Source: Candidatus Collierbacteria bacterium GW2011_GWA2_42_17 (GTDB lineage Bacteria; Patescibacteriota; Microgenomatia; UBA1400; MFAQ01). Taken from it: a DNA stretch of 64,000 bases. Shown piece after piece: positions 3,741 to 24,665 of this stretch. The stretch is from the NCBI GenBank assembly GCA_000998275.1, contig LCDA01000003.1, positions 1,596-65,595 on the forward strand, given 5' to 3'. The notes beneath the pieces were generated by a model, which had not been told where the DNA came from, did no database searches, and saw nothing but the letters and a program-made list of their open reading frames with translations. A program made the position numbers and the translations under genes. Each line of letters opens with the position of its first letter. Within the stretch, counting starts at the first letter, position 1.

Positions 3741-3773
3741 AAATCGGTATTTATTACTATACCAGCTTTGCGT

Positions 3774-3788
3774 GCTACAATACGTAGT
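3774..3788. promoter_or_regulatory. Candidate BlaI/CopY-type operator (GCTAC-N5-GTAGT) abutting the repressor start codon
   Basis: gctacaatacgtagt, with GTAGTAT directly before ATG 3791. Related to the dyads at 5138-5152 and 13316-13330. Confidence 0.4.
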
Positions 3789-3790
3789 AT

Positions 3791-4165
3791 ATGGAATCAA
3801 AATTGTTTGGTTGCTTGGAACAACAGATTATAGATGTTCTTTGGCAAGAAAAGAAACCCTTAAAGCCATTGGATGTCTTGAAACAGCTTAAAGGGGATTA
3901 TGCCTACACGACAGTGATGACGGTTTTGAAGAGAATGTCAGATAAAAAGGTATTAACCAGAGAAATGGTTGGTAAAGCATATGTCTACTCTCCAGTTTCG
4001 AACAAAGAGGTCTATATTAAGAAGAGCTTGAAAAACCTGTATGGTAATTTGATGGATACTTATGGCGAACTTGCGATATCTCAGTTCGTAGACATGGTAA
4101 AAAACGACCGAGAGGATATGAACCTTCTTAAACGGTTTATTGATTCTTCCAAAAAAGCTAAATGA
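3791..4165 (+). CDS. BlaI/MecI/CopY-family winged-helix transcriptional repressor
   Basis: LEQQIIDVLWQEKKPLKPLDVLKQL...YAYTTVMTVLKRMSDKKVL matches the penicillinase-repressor family N-terminal wHTH. There is no C-terminal CxC...CxC copper motif. ATGA overlap with the next gene. Confidence 0.85.
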   Translation: MESKLFGCLEQQIIDVLWQEKKPLKPLDVLKQLKGDYAYTTVMTVLKRMSDKKVLTREMVGKAYVYSPVSNKEVYIKKSLKNLYGNLMDTYGELAISQFVDMVKNDREDMNLLKRFIDSSKKAK

Positions 4166-5134: not shown

Positions 5135-5155
5135 CATACTACACTATGTAGTATG
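5135..5155. promoter_or_regulatory. Perfect 9/3/9 palindrome operator CATACTACA-cta-TGTAGTATG overlapping the start codon; TTGACA -35 at 5118-5123
   Basis: The palindrome is read directly. Its right arm ends in ATG 5153. Core ACTAC-N5-GTAGT. The -35-like TTGACA lies 30 nt upstream of the ATG, suggesting a leaderless or very short leader. Confidence 0.55.
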
Positions 5156-12800: not shown

Positions 12801-13315
12801 TTGGTAATGTTGGCTTTCATTCTTAATATGATCTTTGAGAAATCGGGGTCGTTGGTGTCGATGTATACCTCACGGATGATGACACCATAAACCGGCATGG
12901 TGAAGGGGCGATAGATGACTCTAATGGTTGCTTCAGCTCCAGGAGCTATGTTGACTACCTCGAGAGATCGCTTGCTCATACCATATTCTTTGGTTTCTTG
13001 GTCTCCGCTAATTATTTTGGCTGAGGTACAACCGCAACTGGAATTAATATTTCTAAGCTGAAGTGTTTTTTCACCAATATTTTTGACAATAAAGTCTCTC
13101 GTAATGGTGTCTTTTAATTTCGAGATTCCCGTGTCGACAAAGTTTTCGGGTAATTCAACTTTGGGTTTTTGGGTATCTGTCTGGGTGTAAGAGGTGGTAG
13201 GGGAGCTTGAGGTTTTTTTACTGAGGAGACTGATGGCAAACAGCGAAAGTATCGCTACTAAAGCTGTGCCGAAGACGATCATAATGATTGTTTTGATGCT
13301 GGTAGTATTCAACAT
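12797..13315 (-). CDS. DUF1573-family membrane-anchored protein (SCGCT motif)
   Basis: N-terminal TM, then an Ig-like region with NINSSCGCTSAKI, characteristic of DUF1573. Start is probably the ATG at 13315 (the track's longer ORF starts at an alternative codon at 13351). Confidence 0.55.
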   Translation of the reverse strand: MLNTTSIKTIIMIVFGTALVAILSLFAISLLSKKTSSSPTTSYTQTDTQKPKVELPENFVDTGISKLKDTITRDFIVKNIGEKTLQLRNINSSCGCTSAKIISGDQETKEYGMSKRSLEVVNIAPGAEATIRVIYRPFTMPVYGVIIREVYIDTNDPDFSKIILRMKANITK

Positions 13316-13333
13316 ACTACCTAGTGTAGTAGA
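13313..13333. promoter_or_regulatory. Second ACTAC-N5-GTAGT dyad operator in the divergent promoter region; -10 TATAAT at 13340-13345
   Basis: catACTACctagtGTAGTag. On the minus strand this reads CTACTACA-ctag-GTAGTATG, ending in the ATG of the DUF1573 gene. A perfect TATAAT sits 9 nt before ATG 13354. Confidence 0.5.
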
Positions 13334-16624: not shown

Positions 16625-17104
16625 ATGAACGAAAAAATAAAGCCAGTACCGACTGATTTTAATTCGGAAAAAATGGAGATTGTTATGAGGGCAAACGACG
16701 AAGGTCCACTGGGGGAGATAGAGAGTTGGAAGGAAGCTTTTCCGGAGGTTGAGTTTATGGATGTTGATGAAGCGTTTAGCGGTGACAAGATCGATTGGGA
16801 TCAAAGGACAGTAGTGGAGAAGGCGCTGTTTGTTGCTTTTATGAAAGATCCTCAGTCGACAAGTGTTAGATATGAAATGAAGCTGGACAATATTTACCTG
16901 TCCAAGACAGTTACCGACTCCGAAAGAGTCTGGTGGATGTGGATGGCAGGCTGTTTTTCCGGTGGGGAGCTTGATGAAAAAGCAATAAAAACGTTTTTAT
17001 GGTATGTGGATGAGAGTATTTTAGCGAGACGATTTACCAGGGATATAGATCTGGAAAGGGTAAAAAACATCAAGTACAAAATAAAAGTGGCGCCTTTGGA
17101 ATAA
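16625..17104 (+). CDS. Hypothetical protein
   Basis: 159-aa ORF, acidic N-terminal half and W-rich segment (RVWWMWMAGCFSGG). No known motif. Confidence 0.45.
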   Translation: MNEKIKPVPTDFNSEKMEIVMRANDEGPLGEIESWKEAFPEVEFMDVDEAFSGDKIDWDQRTVVEKALFVAFMKDPQSTSVRYEMKLDNIYLSKTVTDSERVWWMWMAGCFSGGELDEKAIKTFLWYVDESILARRFTRDIDLERVKNIKYKIKVAPLE

Positions 17105-17225
17105 CAAAGAACCTCCTTGCGGAGGCTCCTTGCGAAAATCACTTGCGTAACTTTCTGACTTAATGATTGCTCATTAAGCTATTTATAACTGTAATGTATA
17201 TTACAGATTTTGTCAAGGGGGTAGT
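17105..17225 (+). repeat. Structured repeat element copy A (three hairpins)
   Basis: Hairpin 1 is cctcc-ttgc-ggagg, hairpin 2 is cttaatga-ttgc-tcattaag, hairpin 3 is ctgtaat-gtat-attacag. Ends in TGTCAAG...ATATAAAAA. Confidence 0.45.
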
Positions 17226-17235
17226 TGGATATAAA

Positions 17236-17330
17236 AAGAGACCTCCTTGCGGAAGTCTCTAGCTTACAACCTGCATTGTAGAGCTGGTTCTTTGTAACAT
17301 ATATTACAAAATGTGTCAAGTTATAAAAAT
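17236..17330 (+). repeat. Structured repeat element copy B (same three-hairpin architecture with compensatory substitutions)
   Basis: Hairpin 1 is gagacctcc-ttgc-ggaagtctc, hairpin 2 is ctacaa-cctgca-ttgtag, hairpin 3 is ttgtaa-catata-ttacaa. Ends in TGTCAAGTTATAAAAATAG. Confidence 0.45.
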
Positions 17331-17331
17331 A

Positions 17332-17358
17332 GGCCCCGGGGTTAGCGGGGCCTTTTTC
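17332..17358. terminator. Intrinsic terminator (GC-rich stem + T-tract), usable in both orientations
   Basis: ggccccg-gggttag-cggggcc followed by tttttctt. An A-run precedes it on the other side. Confidence 0.7.
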
Positions 17359-18150
17359 TTAGTGAGGAAGGCTAAGGTTGGTGCACTTTTTAATCTCGTA
17401 GCGGAAGGTGGTTTCCCCTCCGAGGTCAACGAGATCGTCCTTCTCCCATTCAAGCAGGTCGCCGGTCTGCATAATGCGCAGGCCGAGATGATGATTGAAG
17501 GGAACGGCCTTCCAGTGAAGGCGGGCATCGAAGCCCGGCTTAAAAGCTACGGTCCCTACTCCGCGGAGCAGGGAGAAAGAGACAACCATGCCTTCAGGGA
17601 GGTTCTCAGGTGAAGGCGAGTATTCTTCGGTGACGAAGAAAAAACGCCCGTTCTGATTGGCAATACCGATATTGTAGGTATTGCCAGGAACCTCCAAACA
17701 GACCATGTTGGCCGGCCAGCGGGCAATTTGCCCGGTGCCGGTGGAGCAGTCGATGGTAAAGTTTTTCGTATACCCCCCGAGTTCATTTTTAGCCTTGGGG
17801 ACCTTCTGTAACCCTTGGGGGTTGAGAGTGAAGCAGGTGTGTTCACCTTTAACACTCAGGTGGAGGGCGATTTTGGTTCCATGGCGGAAAACGCCGAGGA
17901 AACCATTACCCTCATCCGGGGTAATGATGCGACCAGACTGGTCAAAAAGCACGATCGAAATATTGGGAAGAGCTTTGGGGGAAAACAGGAACTTTTGCAT
18001 GAGAAATCTCCTCGAACGGACGATATGGATAGATTTAAGGAGCAAGCCCATCATTGGGCTGAGAATGAGTCCTATAGTATCATAAGGAGGCTGAAAAGTC
18101 AAGTATTTGCCATAAAAAAAGGCAGGGGTTAGCCTGCCTAATGTGGTCAA
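17359..18150 (-). CDS. Hypothetical protein (locally GC-rich gene)
   Basis: 263-aa ORF (alternative start; a likely ATG start exists further in at MQKFLFSP). No recognisable domain. GC content is noticeably higher than the flanks. Confidence 0.45.
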   Translation of the reverse strand: MTTLGRLTPAFFYGKYLTFQPPYDTIGLILSPMMGLLLKSIHIVRSRRFLMQKFLFSPKALPNISIVLFDQSGRIITPDEGNGFLGVFRHGTKIALHLSVKGEHTCFTLNPQGLQKVPKAKNELGGYTKNFTIDCSTGTGQIARWPANMVCLEVPGNTYNIGIANQNGRFFFVTEEYSPSPENLPEGMVVSFSLLRGVGTVAFKPGFDARLHWKAVPFNHHLGLRIMQTGDLLEWEKDDLVDLGGETTFRYEIKKCTNLSLPH

Positions 18151-20975: not shown

Positions 20976-23900
20976 CTACTCGTCTTTGGTTTGGTAGCGA
21001 TTGAGGGTGAGGAAAATGACGAGAGCAATGATAGGGGCGAGAACTAAAAGGGTGAGGCCAAAGAACTCAAGATACTGAGGAAGGTAGACAAGAATAAGGT
21101 TGGAGTTACCCTCCGGCAGATTCCAGGAGTTGTGCCACGAAGATGTACTGGTTGGGTCGAGTTTGGGTAAGAAAGGGGAGACAAAGGGAACGATGAGGGA
21201 AAGTAACCATGAGGGTGTTTGGGTGTCTGTTGGGGATACCTGGATGGCCTTCCAGGAGAACGATTGGGTCTGGTAGAGACTAAGTGAGCCTTGGCCACCT
21301 TCAATATTTGCGGTGTAAAGAAAAGGATAGGGATGGGTGGAGTTGGTGATTGTCGGTGAGGAGTCGGTGCTGAGAGAAGAGAGCGAGATGTCTTGGAGGA
21401 ACTGAAGAGGAATGGGACGAAGAGAGATGGACTTGATGAGATTTGAGGTAATACGATTGCCAAAAGACTGGTTATATATATGGAGAGTAAAGCCGGGAGC
21501 TTCGGAGAGGTTGGCGATGGGCTGGATGAGAGACTGGATTTGGTTGGTTTTGAGAAGACGCTCGTGGATGTCACAACGACGGGAGGAGTGATTTTCAAGA
21601 CAGACAGTCGGAGTGAGACCTTTTTGGAAACGGTAATCGAAGGAGATTAAATAGTTGAGGGAGTGAGGCAGATGACGAAGATTTAGAATATCGCATTCTG
21701 AGGCATTTTGACTTTGGTAGAGGAAACCATCTTTGGTCACTTGTTTGATCGTTTTACCATTGTTCCATTGATCACAGTTAAGACTTTCGGGAAAAAGACT
21801 GTTGGAATTTGGAGTCTCATTCATATCGAGTTCGGTGTCTGTTTGGAGAAGGGAAACCTGAAGGCGTTCAATCTTATTTTTAAGAACAATATTTTTCTGG
21901 GTGATGAGGGGGAGAGAGGCAGTAGAGGAGTAGATGAGGGGAAGAACACTGATCTCGATATTGTCGTAGTTGATTTCTTTGACGGTTCTGGTTTCTCCAG
22001 CTTCAAGAAGGAGATTGACCTGTTGGAGGGTTCCGGTTGAAGGGGTGAAGATGCGGGCACGGGAGGGTTTTTCTTTGGTTTCTAGGGGTTGGGGAAGACT
22101 TTGGGCGGAGAGATCCGACCCTGAGATATTGACACTAGCCAAGGTGAGAGTGGGTGAGGAGTAAGTAAAGGCGAGAGAGATGAGGTTACCTCGAGTGGTG
22201 TACGGAAGAGTGGCCGAGAGACAGCCAACAACGTCAGTGCCGATTAAAGAGATACCATTCTGGGTAGTGATTTTTTCGACTTTGCGATTTGGTCTTATTC
22301 TGTAACACTGCTCGGGGGTAGCTTCACCAAGTCTGTCGGTGAGGTCGTATGAGCCGATTTCGGAACTAGAGAAGAGAGAAACGGAGAAGGCATTGTGACT
22401 GGGGAGATAGACGGTAGTGAGGGGATAGAAATCGGAGAAACTATCAATCTCGGCCGGGAGCTGGAGTTCGAAGTAGTTTTTGTCCAACTCGAGAATGAAA
22501 CCGGTGCCGGTAGTTCCCGGGATGGTGAGGGTAAGGGGCTGGGTTTGGAGATCTATTTGGCTGTTGTCCAGGAAAATTGTGGGGATGATGGGGGTAAGAC
22601 GAAGATTGAGACTAGTGCCCAGTTTTTGGTACTCGATGCGGATGGGGAGAAGAGTTTCGGAAGTCGTAAGAGAGGGAATGATGAGAGTATCACCTTCGTT
22701 ACCGACTGCTGGTGAAGCGATGTTTAGGTATTCTCCCTTTTTGGTCCAGTCGGTATTGGGGCGAAGAGAGAGGGAGGCAAAAGGATGAGTGATGCCAACA
22801 GGGCTTTGAAGAGAGATGAAGTTTTGGGGTTTATCTTTCAAAGCAACTTGGTAGAGAGAGATTTTGTTGCCGAATTTTTGGTCCAGAGAAAATTTGGGAG
22901 AGCCGGTGACGTATTTTTTAAGGGTAAGCAGACCGGAGTCGGTAGCGTTTTCGGGAAGGGTTAAGTGTTCGTCAATGAGAATCCAGTTGATCGAGTATTT
23001 ATCGAGGATATTTTCAAAAGCGTTTTGGTTGTCGGAGTAGAGAGCGGTACTCATTTCCTCGTAGTATTTTTCGCTGTTTTTGTCCCAGGCGTCGAAGGCG
23101 CGATCCATCAGAGGTTGGCGAAGTCCATACCAAAGGAAGCCTGAACCACGATATCCCCAGTCATAACTTTCCCAACCCCAAAAGGAGAATTGGGGAAAGT
23201 TGGCCACACGAGTGGCTGTGTCTTGGGTTTTCATGTAGGCAAAAAGCTCAAAGTATTCCTGAGGTATTGGTTGGCGCATTGAGGGAGAGATGAGGTTACC
23301 GGAGAAGGCCGGAGACATAAAGAGAACGAGAGAAAAAGCGACGGTAAAGAGGGTAAGGTAGTAGGTTAGTCGGGTGTGAAGAAAAGAAAAAAGATCCAGT
23401 AGGAAGATGGTGCCGATGGAGAAGAAAAAGGAGTAAGCAAGAGAAAGAGGAATGGAAAACTTAGTGAAGGGAGAGCGGAAAAGTTCACCGATGAGGGGGA
23501 TTTTGTTGTTTACTAATAGACCACCTCCGAGAAGGAAAAAGAGACAGAGAACGAGAAGGGCAACAAAGGACTTGGTCCAGGCAAAACGCTTTTTAAAAGA
23601 GTAGTAGAGACCGGTAAGAACAAGAACGAAGGAGAGAAAACCAAGAAGACTGACGATGGAAATATCAAGATGACTGCGCCAGACGGAGAGGAGATAGGTG
23701 TATTTGTTGTCTTGGCCGAGGTCGAGGTAGTTGAAGAGATATCCCTTCATAAGGGCGGTGTCTTTGAGAGTGGCAAACTGGAGATTTCGGGCGTAGGTTT
23801 CGGGAGAAGAGAGAAGATTGTTTTTGGCTTGCTCGGGAACAGTGCCATTGGTGATGACAAAAAAAGCAACGGGAAGGAGCCAGAAGAGGTGAGGAATGAC

Positions 23901-24665
23901 GAGGGTAAAAAGGGAGAGAAGGGAGGTCTTGAGGTGTTGGGCTTTGTGTTTTTGTTGCTTTAAAAACTCGACAAAGAAAGGAAGAACGGCGACAAAGAAA
24001 ACCAGAAAAATGGTCTCGACATAAAAGGAGGGGGCGGAGAAAAAAGAGATTAAAAAGAGAACAAAGAGATTAATTTTGGTGGGTTTTTGAAGGTAGGTGA
24101 TGATGAAATACAAAAGCCAAGGAAGGGCACCGTAGAACCAAGTGAAAGTTTCGAAAGGGACGAAGAAAGTCTGGAGAGTGTTGAGATTAAGAAGATAGTA
24201 GAGGGCACCGAGAAAGGAAGCAAACTGAATGGTTTTGGCATCAAGTTTGCTTTTAAAAAGATGATTGTAGAAAAGAAGGTAAACCCCAAGAGGACCGAGA
24301 ACCAGGGGGAGGAAGGTGGTGATGTAGCGGATTAGGTCTGGGGTAAGTTTGGCGGCAAGAAGTAGGGCAGCAAACAAAACTCTGGGGAGATCGGCAGCGT
24401 GAGCCATGCCACCGAGAAGTCCGGGTCCGCGGTATTCCTGCCAGACGGAGAAGAGGGCTCTTTTAAGATTCTCGTCGATATCAAACTCGGGATGGAGATT
24501 GTCCCAGCCGGTGAGAAAAGTATTCGGCTCGAAGTTGAGAAAAATGAGGAGACCGGTAACAAAGAGGAGAGCGATGACGGGCCAGAGACGGGTGAGGAGC
24601 TTGCCCAGGTGACGAAGCTCTCGAAGGGGGAAGCGGTGTTTTGCTTTGGTAATATTCTTGGCCAC
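20976..24665 (-). CDS. Large polytopic membrane protein with extracytoplasmic C-terminal domain (GT-C-like glycosyltransferase or YfhO-like, tentative)
   Basis: 1229 aa. More than 12 N-terminal TM helices with an acidic first-loop motif (WDNLHPEFDIDEN). A long non-membrane domain of about 700 aa, then a C-terminal TM (LLVLAPIIALVIFLTL). The many S/P-rich ORFs in other frames are ignored. Confidence 0.55.
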   Translation of the reverse strand: MAKNITKAKHRFPLRELRHLGKLLTRLWPVIALLFVTGLLIFLNFEPNTFLTGWDNLHPEFDIDENLKRALFSVWQEYRGPGLLGGMAHAADLPRVLFAALLLAAKLTPDLIRYITTFLPLVLGPLGVYLLFYNHLFKSKLDAKTIQFASFLGALYYLLNLNTLQTFFVPFETFTWFYGALPWLLYFIITYLQKPTKINLFVLFLISFFSAPSFYVETIFLVFFVAVLPFFVEFLKQQKHKAQHLKTSLLSLFTLVIPHLFWLLPVAFFVITNGTVPEQAKNNLLSSPETYARNLQFATLKDTALMKGYLFNYLDLGQDNKYTYLLSVWRSHLDISIVSLLGFLSFVLVLTGLYYSFKKRFAWTKSFVALLVLCLFFLLGGGLLVNNKIPLIGELFRSPFTKFSIPLSLAYSFFFSIGTIFLLDLFSFLHTRLTYYLTLFTVAFSLVLFMSPAFSGNLISPSMRQPIPQEYFELFAYMKTQDTATRVANFPQFSFWGWESYDWGYRGSGFLWYGLRQPLMDRAFDAWDKNSEKYYEEMSTALYSDNQNAFENILDKYSINWILIDEHLTLPENATDSGLLTLKKYVTGSPKFSLDQKFGNKISLYQVALKDKPQNFISLQSPVGITHPFASLSLRPNTDWTKKGEYLNIASPAVGNEGDTLIIPSLTTSETLLPIRIEYQKLGTSLNLRLTPIIPTIFLDNSQIDLQTQPLTLTIPGTTGTGFILELDKNYFELQLPAEIDSFSDFYPLTTVYLPSHNAFSVSLFSSSEIGSYDLTDRLGEATPEQCYRIRPNRKVEKITTQNGISLIGTDVVGCLSATLPYTTRGNLISLAFTYSSPTLTLASVNISGSDLSAQSLPQPLETKEKPSRARIFTPSTGTLQQVNLLLEAGETRTVKEINYDNIEISVLPLIYSSTASLPLITQKNIVLKNKIERLQVSLLQTDTELDMNETPNSNSLFPESLNCDQWNNGKTIKQVTKDGFLYQSQNASECDILNLRHLPHSLNYLISFDYRFQKGLTPTVCLENHSSRRCDIHERLLKTNQIQSLIQPIANLSEAPGFTLHIYNQSFGNRITSNLIKSISLRPIPLQFLQDISLSSLSTDSSPTITNSTHPYPFLYTANIEGGQGSLSLYQTQSFSWKAIQVSPTDTQTPSWLLSLIVPFVSPFLPKLDPTSTSSWHNSWNLPEGNSNLILVYLPQYLEFFGLTLLVLAPIIALVIFLTLNRYQTKDE

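Follow-up and report, generated by a model that had tools for sequence, protein, structure and literature searches.

The spacer at positions 17105-17358 of the window (the whole 64,000-nt stretch of DNA analyzed) lies between two convergent open reading frames, a 159-aa gene on the plus strand (16625-17104) and a minus-strand ORF called as 263 aa (17359-18150). This spacer very probably holds two adjacent, separately transcribed small RNA genes on the minus strand of a Candidatus Collierbacteria (CPR/Microgenomates) chromosome. Unit B encodes a predicted RNA of ~53 nt, RNA B (17232..17285), and unit A, which follows it, a predicted RNA of ~78 nt, RNA A (17101..17180). We regard the pair as a genuine, previously undescribed sRNA family and, at the same time, as a familiar kind of genetic element. 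OmrA/OmrB of enterobacteria and PrrF1/PrrF2 of Pseudomonas are adjacent paralogous sRNA genes whose promoters share regulatory sites, for OmpR in the case of OmrA/B and as a Fur box overlapping the promoter in the case of PrrF1/2. Like these pairs, units A and B follow one another head-to-tail within a single intergenic region, and each is equipped with a promoter and an intrinsic terminator of its own; a similar candidate regulatory site lies in both promoters, and the ends of the units are alike while their bodies differ. Unlike them, the bodies of RNAs A and B are almost fully paired GNRA hairpins with no free seed, they have no similarity to Rfam families, and their host is an uncultured CPR bacterium.

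CPR bacteria are uncultured organisms with genomes of ~1 Mb, and in the literature on small RNAs of CPR/Patescibacteria we found no described regulatory or structural small RNA. Reads from groundwater metatranscriptomes can be mapped to the pair as a concrete target, an Rfam-style family can be built from it, and it may give a handle on gene regulation in the CPR lineage. Recognizable promoters and terminators, a shared dyad and conservation far above that of the neighboring proteins make the predictions clear.

Anatomy of the two minus-strand units

Unit B opens with a promoter at 17291..17319 of the minus strand, in which a 17-nt spacer separates the -35 element TTGACA (17319-17314) from the -10 element TACAAA (17296-17291), and which is kept in 8 genomes. 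The predicted transcript starts at AGCU and consists of a body hairpin, AGCU-C-UACAAU-GCAG-GUUGUA-AGCU (17285-17261, minus strand), and a terminator hairpin, AGAGACUUCC-GCAA-GGAGGUCUCU (17260-17237, minus strand), followed by a U-run. This terminator, which a consensus scanner detected on the minus strand, directly precedes the unit A promoter (17188..17216, minus strand; -35 TTGACA at 17216-17211, 17-nt spacer, -10 TACAGT at 17193-17188). The unit A promoter gave 10/12 consensus matches on the minus strand, and the same site was detected in the distant homolog L008. RNA A, likewise with AGCU as its predicted start, folds into three hairpins with GNRA loops, all on the minus strand: H1, GCUUAAUGA-GCAA-UCAUUAAGU (17179-17158); H2, GAAAGUUAC-GCAA-GUGAUUUUC (17155-17134); and the terminator helix H3, GCAAGGAGCCUCC-GCAA-GGAGGUUCUUUGU (17133-17104), which is long (13 bp) and very stable and passes into the U-rich tail UCUUUGUU. 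The ends of both transcripts were placed by consensus motifs only, with 5' ends predicted from the distance to the -10 element and 3' ends from the U-run.

Across 18 homologous promoters the consensus is TTGACA-N3-TtTGTAAtATaT-N-TTACA-N-t, and the promoter ends 5-7 nt before an AGC/AGCU start. On consensus and conservation, then, each unit has the promoter of an independent sRNA gene, and each has its own terminator, a stem with a U-run that shows compensatory changes in the stems of both units. In fitting the consensus definitions on the minus strand, both units resemble generic sigma-70 promoters and intrinsic terminators. Unlike generic elements, they have one conserved sequence, YCC-GCAA-GGR, for the loop and upper stem of the terminator in both units and in every genome, and a conserved dyad lies in the promoter spacer.

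The dyad, of the form TGTAA-N6-TTACA, is TGTAATATATGTTACA in unit B (17308-17293, minus strand) and TGTAATATACATTACA in unit A (17205-17190, minus strand). An initial annotation of this DNA, made from the sequence alone, had listed these as the third hairpin of each copy. They sit upstream of the predicted transcript starts, and among the 18 homologous promoters the inner positions lack compensatory change, with mismatches in L021, L026 and the window itself, which argues against an RNA stem and for an element acting as DNA, either a pair of half-sites or part of the promoter; L028 has no dyad. In the 64-kb window the pattern TGTA-N8-TACA is found at the two sRNA promoters only, and the dyad is absent from 12 other TTGAC-type promoter-like sites. 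A scan of species genomes, a collection in which the window's own species seems to be missing, returned one related genome and otherwise promoters of unrelated bacteria, and was informative on orientation, not on homologs; it found the full promoter motif in unrelated bacteria ahead of a tRNA gene and protein genes, always in promoter orientation. Its placement ahead of genes in unrelated bacteria supports promoter function and does not decide on an operator role for the dyad. We infer that the dyad is a regulator site common to both promoters; as both carry it, RNAs A and B would be co-regulated.

A bidirectional intrinsic terminator lies outside both units at 17331..17353, with an 8-bp stem of which 7 pairs are G-C and a T-run on each strand. 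On the minus strand it closes the upstream 212-aa gene and stands ahead of the unit B promoter, and a hairpin with a T-run stands at the matching position in the homologs that we read. The strong terminator that had been assigned to the end of the repeat pair is real as a GC stem with a T-tract, but it belongs to the protein gene upstream and to neither unit. A common loop, GCTAACCCC, is found in the terminators that follow the 187-aa gene (18120-18139) and the 212-aa gene (17331-17353), and homologous terminators in relatives have similar GC(T)AA-type loops.

Strand, folding and conservation

That there are two units with similar ends, as first described, is confirmed by a repeat finder, which gave direct repeats D4 (17190-17217 / 17293-17320, 82%) and D5 (17101-17123 / 17231-17253, 83%). 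Their polarity had been read the wrong way round: the supposed conserved 5' end, AGACCTCCTTGCGGARG, corresponds in reverse complement to an intrinsic terminator, and the supposed 3' end, ATATATTACA..TGTCAAG, in the same way to a promoter. The hairpins named in the proposed three-hairpin layout do exist, as I8, I9 and I10 of the repeat finder, and the layout missed one more in unit A, the GAAAGUUAC-GCAA-GUGAUUUUC hairpin. Differences between the two copies of the second hairpin had been taken for covariation. Each of these hairpins is nearly invariant among genomes, and they differ from one another because units A and B are different genes; the differences are therefore no covariation inside a single aligned family and do not count as evidence of structure.

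Folding agrees with the minus strand. On this strand none of 200 shuffles folded as well as either RNA (RNA A of the window, -39.5 kcal/mol, z = -9.8; RNA B of the window, -24.7 kcal/mol, z = -4.8). On the plus strand the values were -31.5 kcal/mol (z = -2.0) for unit A (132 nt) and -25.1 kcal/mol (z = -3.3) for unit B (94 nt), both taken with the promoter. The sense strand also folds better than the antisense strand in L008 (RNA A, -35.4 kcal/mol and z = -8.4 against -17.9 kcal/mol and z = -3.5) and in L026. In an alignment of 11 RNA A sequences, 97.9% of helix cells are paired on the minus strand versus 79.5% on the plus strand, a drop that arises because several invariant G.U pairs turn into A.C mismatches. 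Such invariant or near-invariant G.U pairs occur, for example, at columns 5-26, 33-46, 35-44, 51-80 and 55-76. The loops, GCAA, GAAA or GCAG, are of the GNRA type on the minus strand only.

Homologs were collected by way of neighbor-protein families, a scan of metagenomes for a 22-mer that is invariant in RNA A, and direct reading of spacers. The B-then-A pair is present at the syntenic site in ~10 distinct Candidatus Collierbacteria contigs (the window, L007/L024, L008, L017/L018, L021, L023/L029, L025 and L026/L027). Unit A stands alone in L019, L022 (at the contig end) and L028. The site is empty of RNAs in L009, in a contig whose spacer measures 62 nt, and in L020, where only a remnant of the promoter is left. 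The pair is apparently confined to one Collierbacteria clade. Flanking proteins share 36-60% identity overall (56-60% among relatives for the upstream 212-aa family, 36-39% for the homologs of the 159-aa gene in L027 and L021), whereas the RNA bodies are nearly invariant. The body of RNA B, GCUCUACAAUGCAG-UUGUAAGCUA, is the same in 9 sequences save for one loop base, and 59/93 columns are invariant in the RNA A alignment. The pair is intact in L026/L027 despite a different upstream protein, and it persists whether the downstream gene is convergent or co-directional. Both cassettes are under strong purifying selection on sequence and pairing.

Two contigs show what looks like loss at this site. 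Six near-identical contigs have an identical region, except L005 (GW2011_GWE2_42_48, LCDW01000009), in which 40 bp are missing at 3922-3923, corresponding to window positions 17189-17228 and exactly to the unit A promoter. The rest of its spacer is identical, and gene calling gives its convergent ORF a length of 139 aa, not 159 aa; the deletion could be a natural variant or an assembly artefact. In L020 (1009-1045) a promoter of the same type, TTGACA-N5-TGTAAGGTATATTACATT, is followed by AGCCCTAC and points straight into the 3' end of a convergent 165-aa gene. The sRNA body is gone, and this looks like a deletion remnant.

We also assessed covariation among the homologs. Three pairs of RNA A change on both sides in the 11 sequences: pair 9-22 in H1 (A-U in 6, G-C in 4, G.U in 1) and, in the terminator helix, pairs 56-75 (A-U in 6, G-C in 5) and 59-72 (C-G in 6, U-A in 4, U.G in 1). 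H2 has one-sided changes only (A-U to G.U, U.G to U-A), and the terminator of RNA B has three pairs changed on both sides. In covariation RNA A scored 0.151 against 0.099 +/- 0.011 for shuffles, none of which scored as high, and with pairing partners shifted by 1-3 columns almost no covariation was left. The sample amounts to ~11 distinct sequences from one clade and to few evolutionary events, mostly in terminator stems, and the support that covariation lends to the structure is real but thin; since the body hairpins are almost invariant, it tells little about them. Taken with the conserved homologs and the fold z-scores, the compensatory changes, seen in the terminator stems and at one pair of a body, uphold the earlier suggestion of selection on RNA structure rather than on coding and, among the identities then offered for the units, that of a duplicated sRNA.

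The 3' half of RNA A can also be written as three 13-nt repeats, [YYYC-GCAA-GRRR-N]x3 (D1-D3), each with a CGCAAG mini-hairpin. RNA A has three to four C-GCAA-G or A-GNAA-U hairpins. An alternative fold with three mini-hairpins is compatible with the alignment (98.7% paired), and its extra helix carries one-sided changes only. Pair 56-75 speaks for the long terminator helix over this fold. Covariance models of units A and B match one another weakly (27-30 bits), chiefly via the common terminator. Both models also gave weak matches in L027, to the terminator that follows a 5S rRNA-like gene (440-556), recognized as such by eye.

Neither RNA could be placed in a known family. Rfam 15 gave no match at gathering thresholds anywhere in the window; in a permissive search the best sub-threshold hits reached 11-21 bits against thresholds of 44-141, most of them driven by the terminator at 17331-17353. 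As compact, highly structured and conserved RNAs with several similar hairpins and a plausible role as protein ligand or decoy, RNAs A and B resemble CsrB/RsmZ and 6S RNA. Unlike CsrB/RsmZ they have no GGA in their loops, which are GCAA, GAAA or GCAG; their GGA segments lie in stems only and are not conserved, being lost in several homologs, and a CsrA sponge was rejected. Unlike 6S RNA they are far smaller (53-78 nt) and have no open-promoter-like bubble. A CRISPR, TIGR or ToxI array was discarded as well, as there are only two non-identical units, each with promoter and terminator, and they are conserved rather than variable among genomes; the neighboring genes scanned encode no Cas, Tas or ToxN-like Pfam domain. 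The defining motifs of SRP RNA, box C/D or k-turn RNAs and type III antitoxins are absent from the alignments.

Protein recognition and rival readings

How the RNAs act we infer as follows. In each gene, a near-consensus sigma-70 promoter (TTGACA, 17 nt, TACAGT or TACAAA) would drive transcription, which would start at AGCU and stop at the GCAA-capped hairpin and its U-run, and a regulator bound at the shared dyad would govern RNA A and RNA B together. The folded hairpins may then be recognized by a conserved protein, as its partner or as a decoy, instead of presenting a single-stranded seed to mRNAs. We favor protein recognition tentatively, as the preferred guess, because nearly all bases are paired and the bodies are almost invariant. 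In the predicted ensemble everything is paired except the tetraloops, the U-tails, a single bulged C and a 2-nt CA junction, which leaves no seed accessible, and conservation spans entire helices, invariant G.U pairs included. Pairing between RNAs A and B was tried and rejected, as it brought no gain over the separate folds.

Seed-type pairing is a possible reading to which we give somewhat less credence. Here the pair would act as classical base-pairing, trans-acting sRNAs that open up or use their loops on mRNAs, for example those of the neighboring copper-homeostasis genes. Independent promoter/terminator units are typical of that class, in most loci the pair borders a copper island with genes for P-type ATPases, DsbD-cupredoxin and HMA, and a CUCC segment could pair with Shine-Dalgarno sequences. 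However, CUCC is buried in the terminator stem, just tetraloops, the 2-nt junction and tails are unpaired, and whole helices are conserved rather than a short seed. A duplex scan against 57 start regions in the window yielded only long, loop-ridden artefacts. Co-occurrence of the RNAs with copper genes among relatives is frequent and not strict: L022 has RNA A without copper genes, and one contig has copper genes without the RNAs.

A cis-acting role for the pair or for unit A alone, as 5' leader or attenuator of a downstream DsbD-cupredoxin gene with the terminator as a conditional stop, is improbable. This reading draws on L008, L019 and L025, where the unit A terminator lies ~30-110 nt before the start codon of a co-directional DsbD-cupredoxin gene with no obvious -35 element in between. 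Yet the gene after unit A is convergent in the window, L007, L017, L021, L023, L027 and L028, where the RNA is equally conserved. Moreover, no alternative anti-terminator pairing is evident, the 13-bp terminator helix is long and very stable, and a separate terminator closes unit B directly ahead of the unit A promoter. Ahead of the DsbD-cupredoxin gene that follows unit A, a TATAAAAT box stands ~10 nt from the ATG in L008 (4985-5006) and in L025 (1040-1067); together with the lack of a Shine-Dalgarno sequence, the box suggests a leaderless or very short-leader mRNA.

Still harder to sustain is a reading on the plus strand, with the region as a structured 3'UTR of the 159-aa gene, in which two repeats would be closed off by the terminator at 17331-17353. 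Up to 17331 no T-tract terminator follows that gene, whose transcript therefore probably continues across the region, and the plus-strand units fold somewhat better than shuffles. Against this stand the loss of pairing on the plus strand, where conserved G.U pairs become A.C mismatches, and the fit of the conserved ends to promoter and terminator consensus on the minus strand only. Furthermore, the elements are equally conserved in L008, L019 and L025, where the 159-aa gene is absent. The stop codon of the 159-aa gene (16625..17104, plus strand) lies within the 3' end of unit A, with which it overlaps, and read-through transcripts from this gene would run antisense to RNA A and RNA B.

An element acting at the DNA level with no RNA product (a MITE- or REP-like repeat, a cruciform or an array of protein-binding sites) is scarcely credible, even though the region is dense in palindromes and the dyad, unique to two sites in the window, resembles a site for a dimeric protein, because strand asymmetry based on G.U pairs is inexplicable in DNA. 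The suggestion of a MITE fails on distribution: BLAST and the two covariance models found no further copy in the 64-kb window or in 119 kb from 22 related loci, a search that covered part of each genome and gave one syntenic locus per related contig. The element has neither terminal inverted repeats nor target-site duplications, and there was no match in IMG/VR, phage or plasmid collections. A single locus per contig, along with the lack of a phage or plasmid match, speaks against a MITE/REP element and against a mobile-element RNA. As a description of whole units the suggested protein-binding array is unlikely, while the promoter dyad TGTAA-N6-TTACA could be a binding site.

The upstream protein and the copper island

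If the hairpins are recognized by a protein, the adjacent OB/cold-shock-like protein is one candidate partner, proposed speculatively and from adjacency only. It is a lineage-specific protein of ~212-213 aa encoded on the minus strand at 17359..18000. Gene callers extend the gene to 18150 (263 aa), and the true start is likely the ATG at 18000, which has a ribosome-binding site before it; a promoter-like site lies at 18102-18074 (minus strand). The family comprises 12 clusters. The AlphaFold2 model has a pLDDT of 89 and includes one domain with an OB fold like that of cold-shock proteins, and its best PDB matches by Foldseek are cold-shock proteins (target-normalized TM 0.77, probability 1.0, E 0.04), with E-values for this assignment that are weak throughout (0.04-0.5). 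The family has no Pfam match, cold-shock included, and the aromatic motifs RNP1/RNP2 are not obviously retained. His54, Cys56, Met99, Cys101 and Trp95 are invariant. An OB fold that binds metal would be equally compatible with these residues, in a region rich in copper genes. At its C-terminus, the non-homologous upstream protein of L027 gives a signal for a cold-shock domain, below threshold in Pfam (E 5e-5) and at E 7e-4 by hhalign.

A more specific picture, in which the RNAs and the OB/cold-shock-like protein would form a CPR-specific ribonucleoprotein for housekeeping or stress (possibly metal stress, in view of the copper island beside them), with a dedicated dyad-binding repressor as the switch, we consider unlikely. 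To our knowledge no comparable ribonucleoprotein has been described in reduced-genome bacteria. The adjacency may be mere inherited synteny, the order being radA, the 187-aa gene, the 212-aa gene, RNA B, RNA A, the 159-aa gene, copper genes and rpsA.

The RNAs lie at the edge of a copper and redox island that spans window positions 1-17 kb. It contains two heavy-metal P-type ATPases, three DsbD-cupredoxin-type proteins, HMA domains and a BlaI/CopY-family repressor (Penicillinase_R) at 3791-4165 with its M56 partner. A dyad, TACTAC-N5-GTAGTA, occurs at 3773-3789, 5137-5153 and 13315-13331 (3 found against 0.01 expected), and these sites overlap promoter-like sites by the BlaI/CopY gene and by the DsbD-cupredoxin/HMA and DUF1573-DsbD operons. 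TACTAC-N5-GTAGTA is probably the operator of the BlaI/CopY-family repressor, which would define a small copper/redox regulon. The dyad of the sRNA promoters differs from it in half-site arrangement and is ruled out as an operator of this type.

Farther along the window, a 1229-aa ORF with no Pfam domain lies on the minus strand beside radA (20976-24665), and L008 has a 1261-aa ORF with no recorded Pfam match at the corresponding place beside radA. The plus strand has a positive GC skew throughout the window (1-64000), in each 2-kb bin and whatever the gene orientation, with values of up to 0.40, and an AT-rich stretch with a GC content of 0.32 lies at ~30-34 kb.
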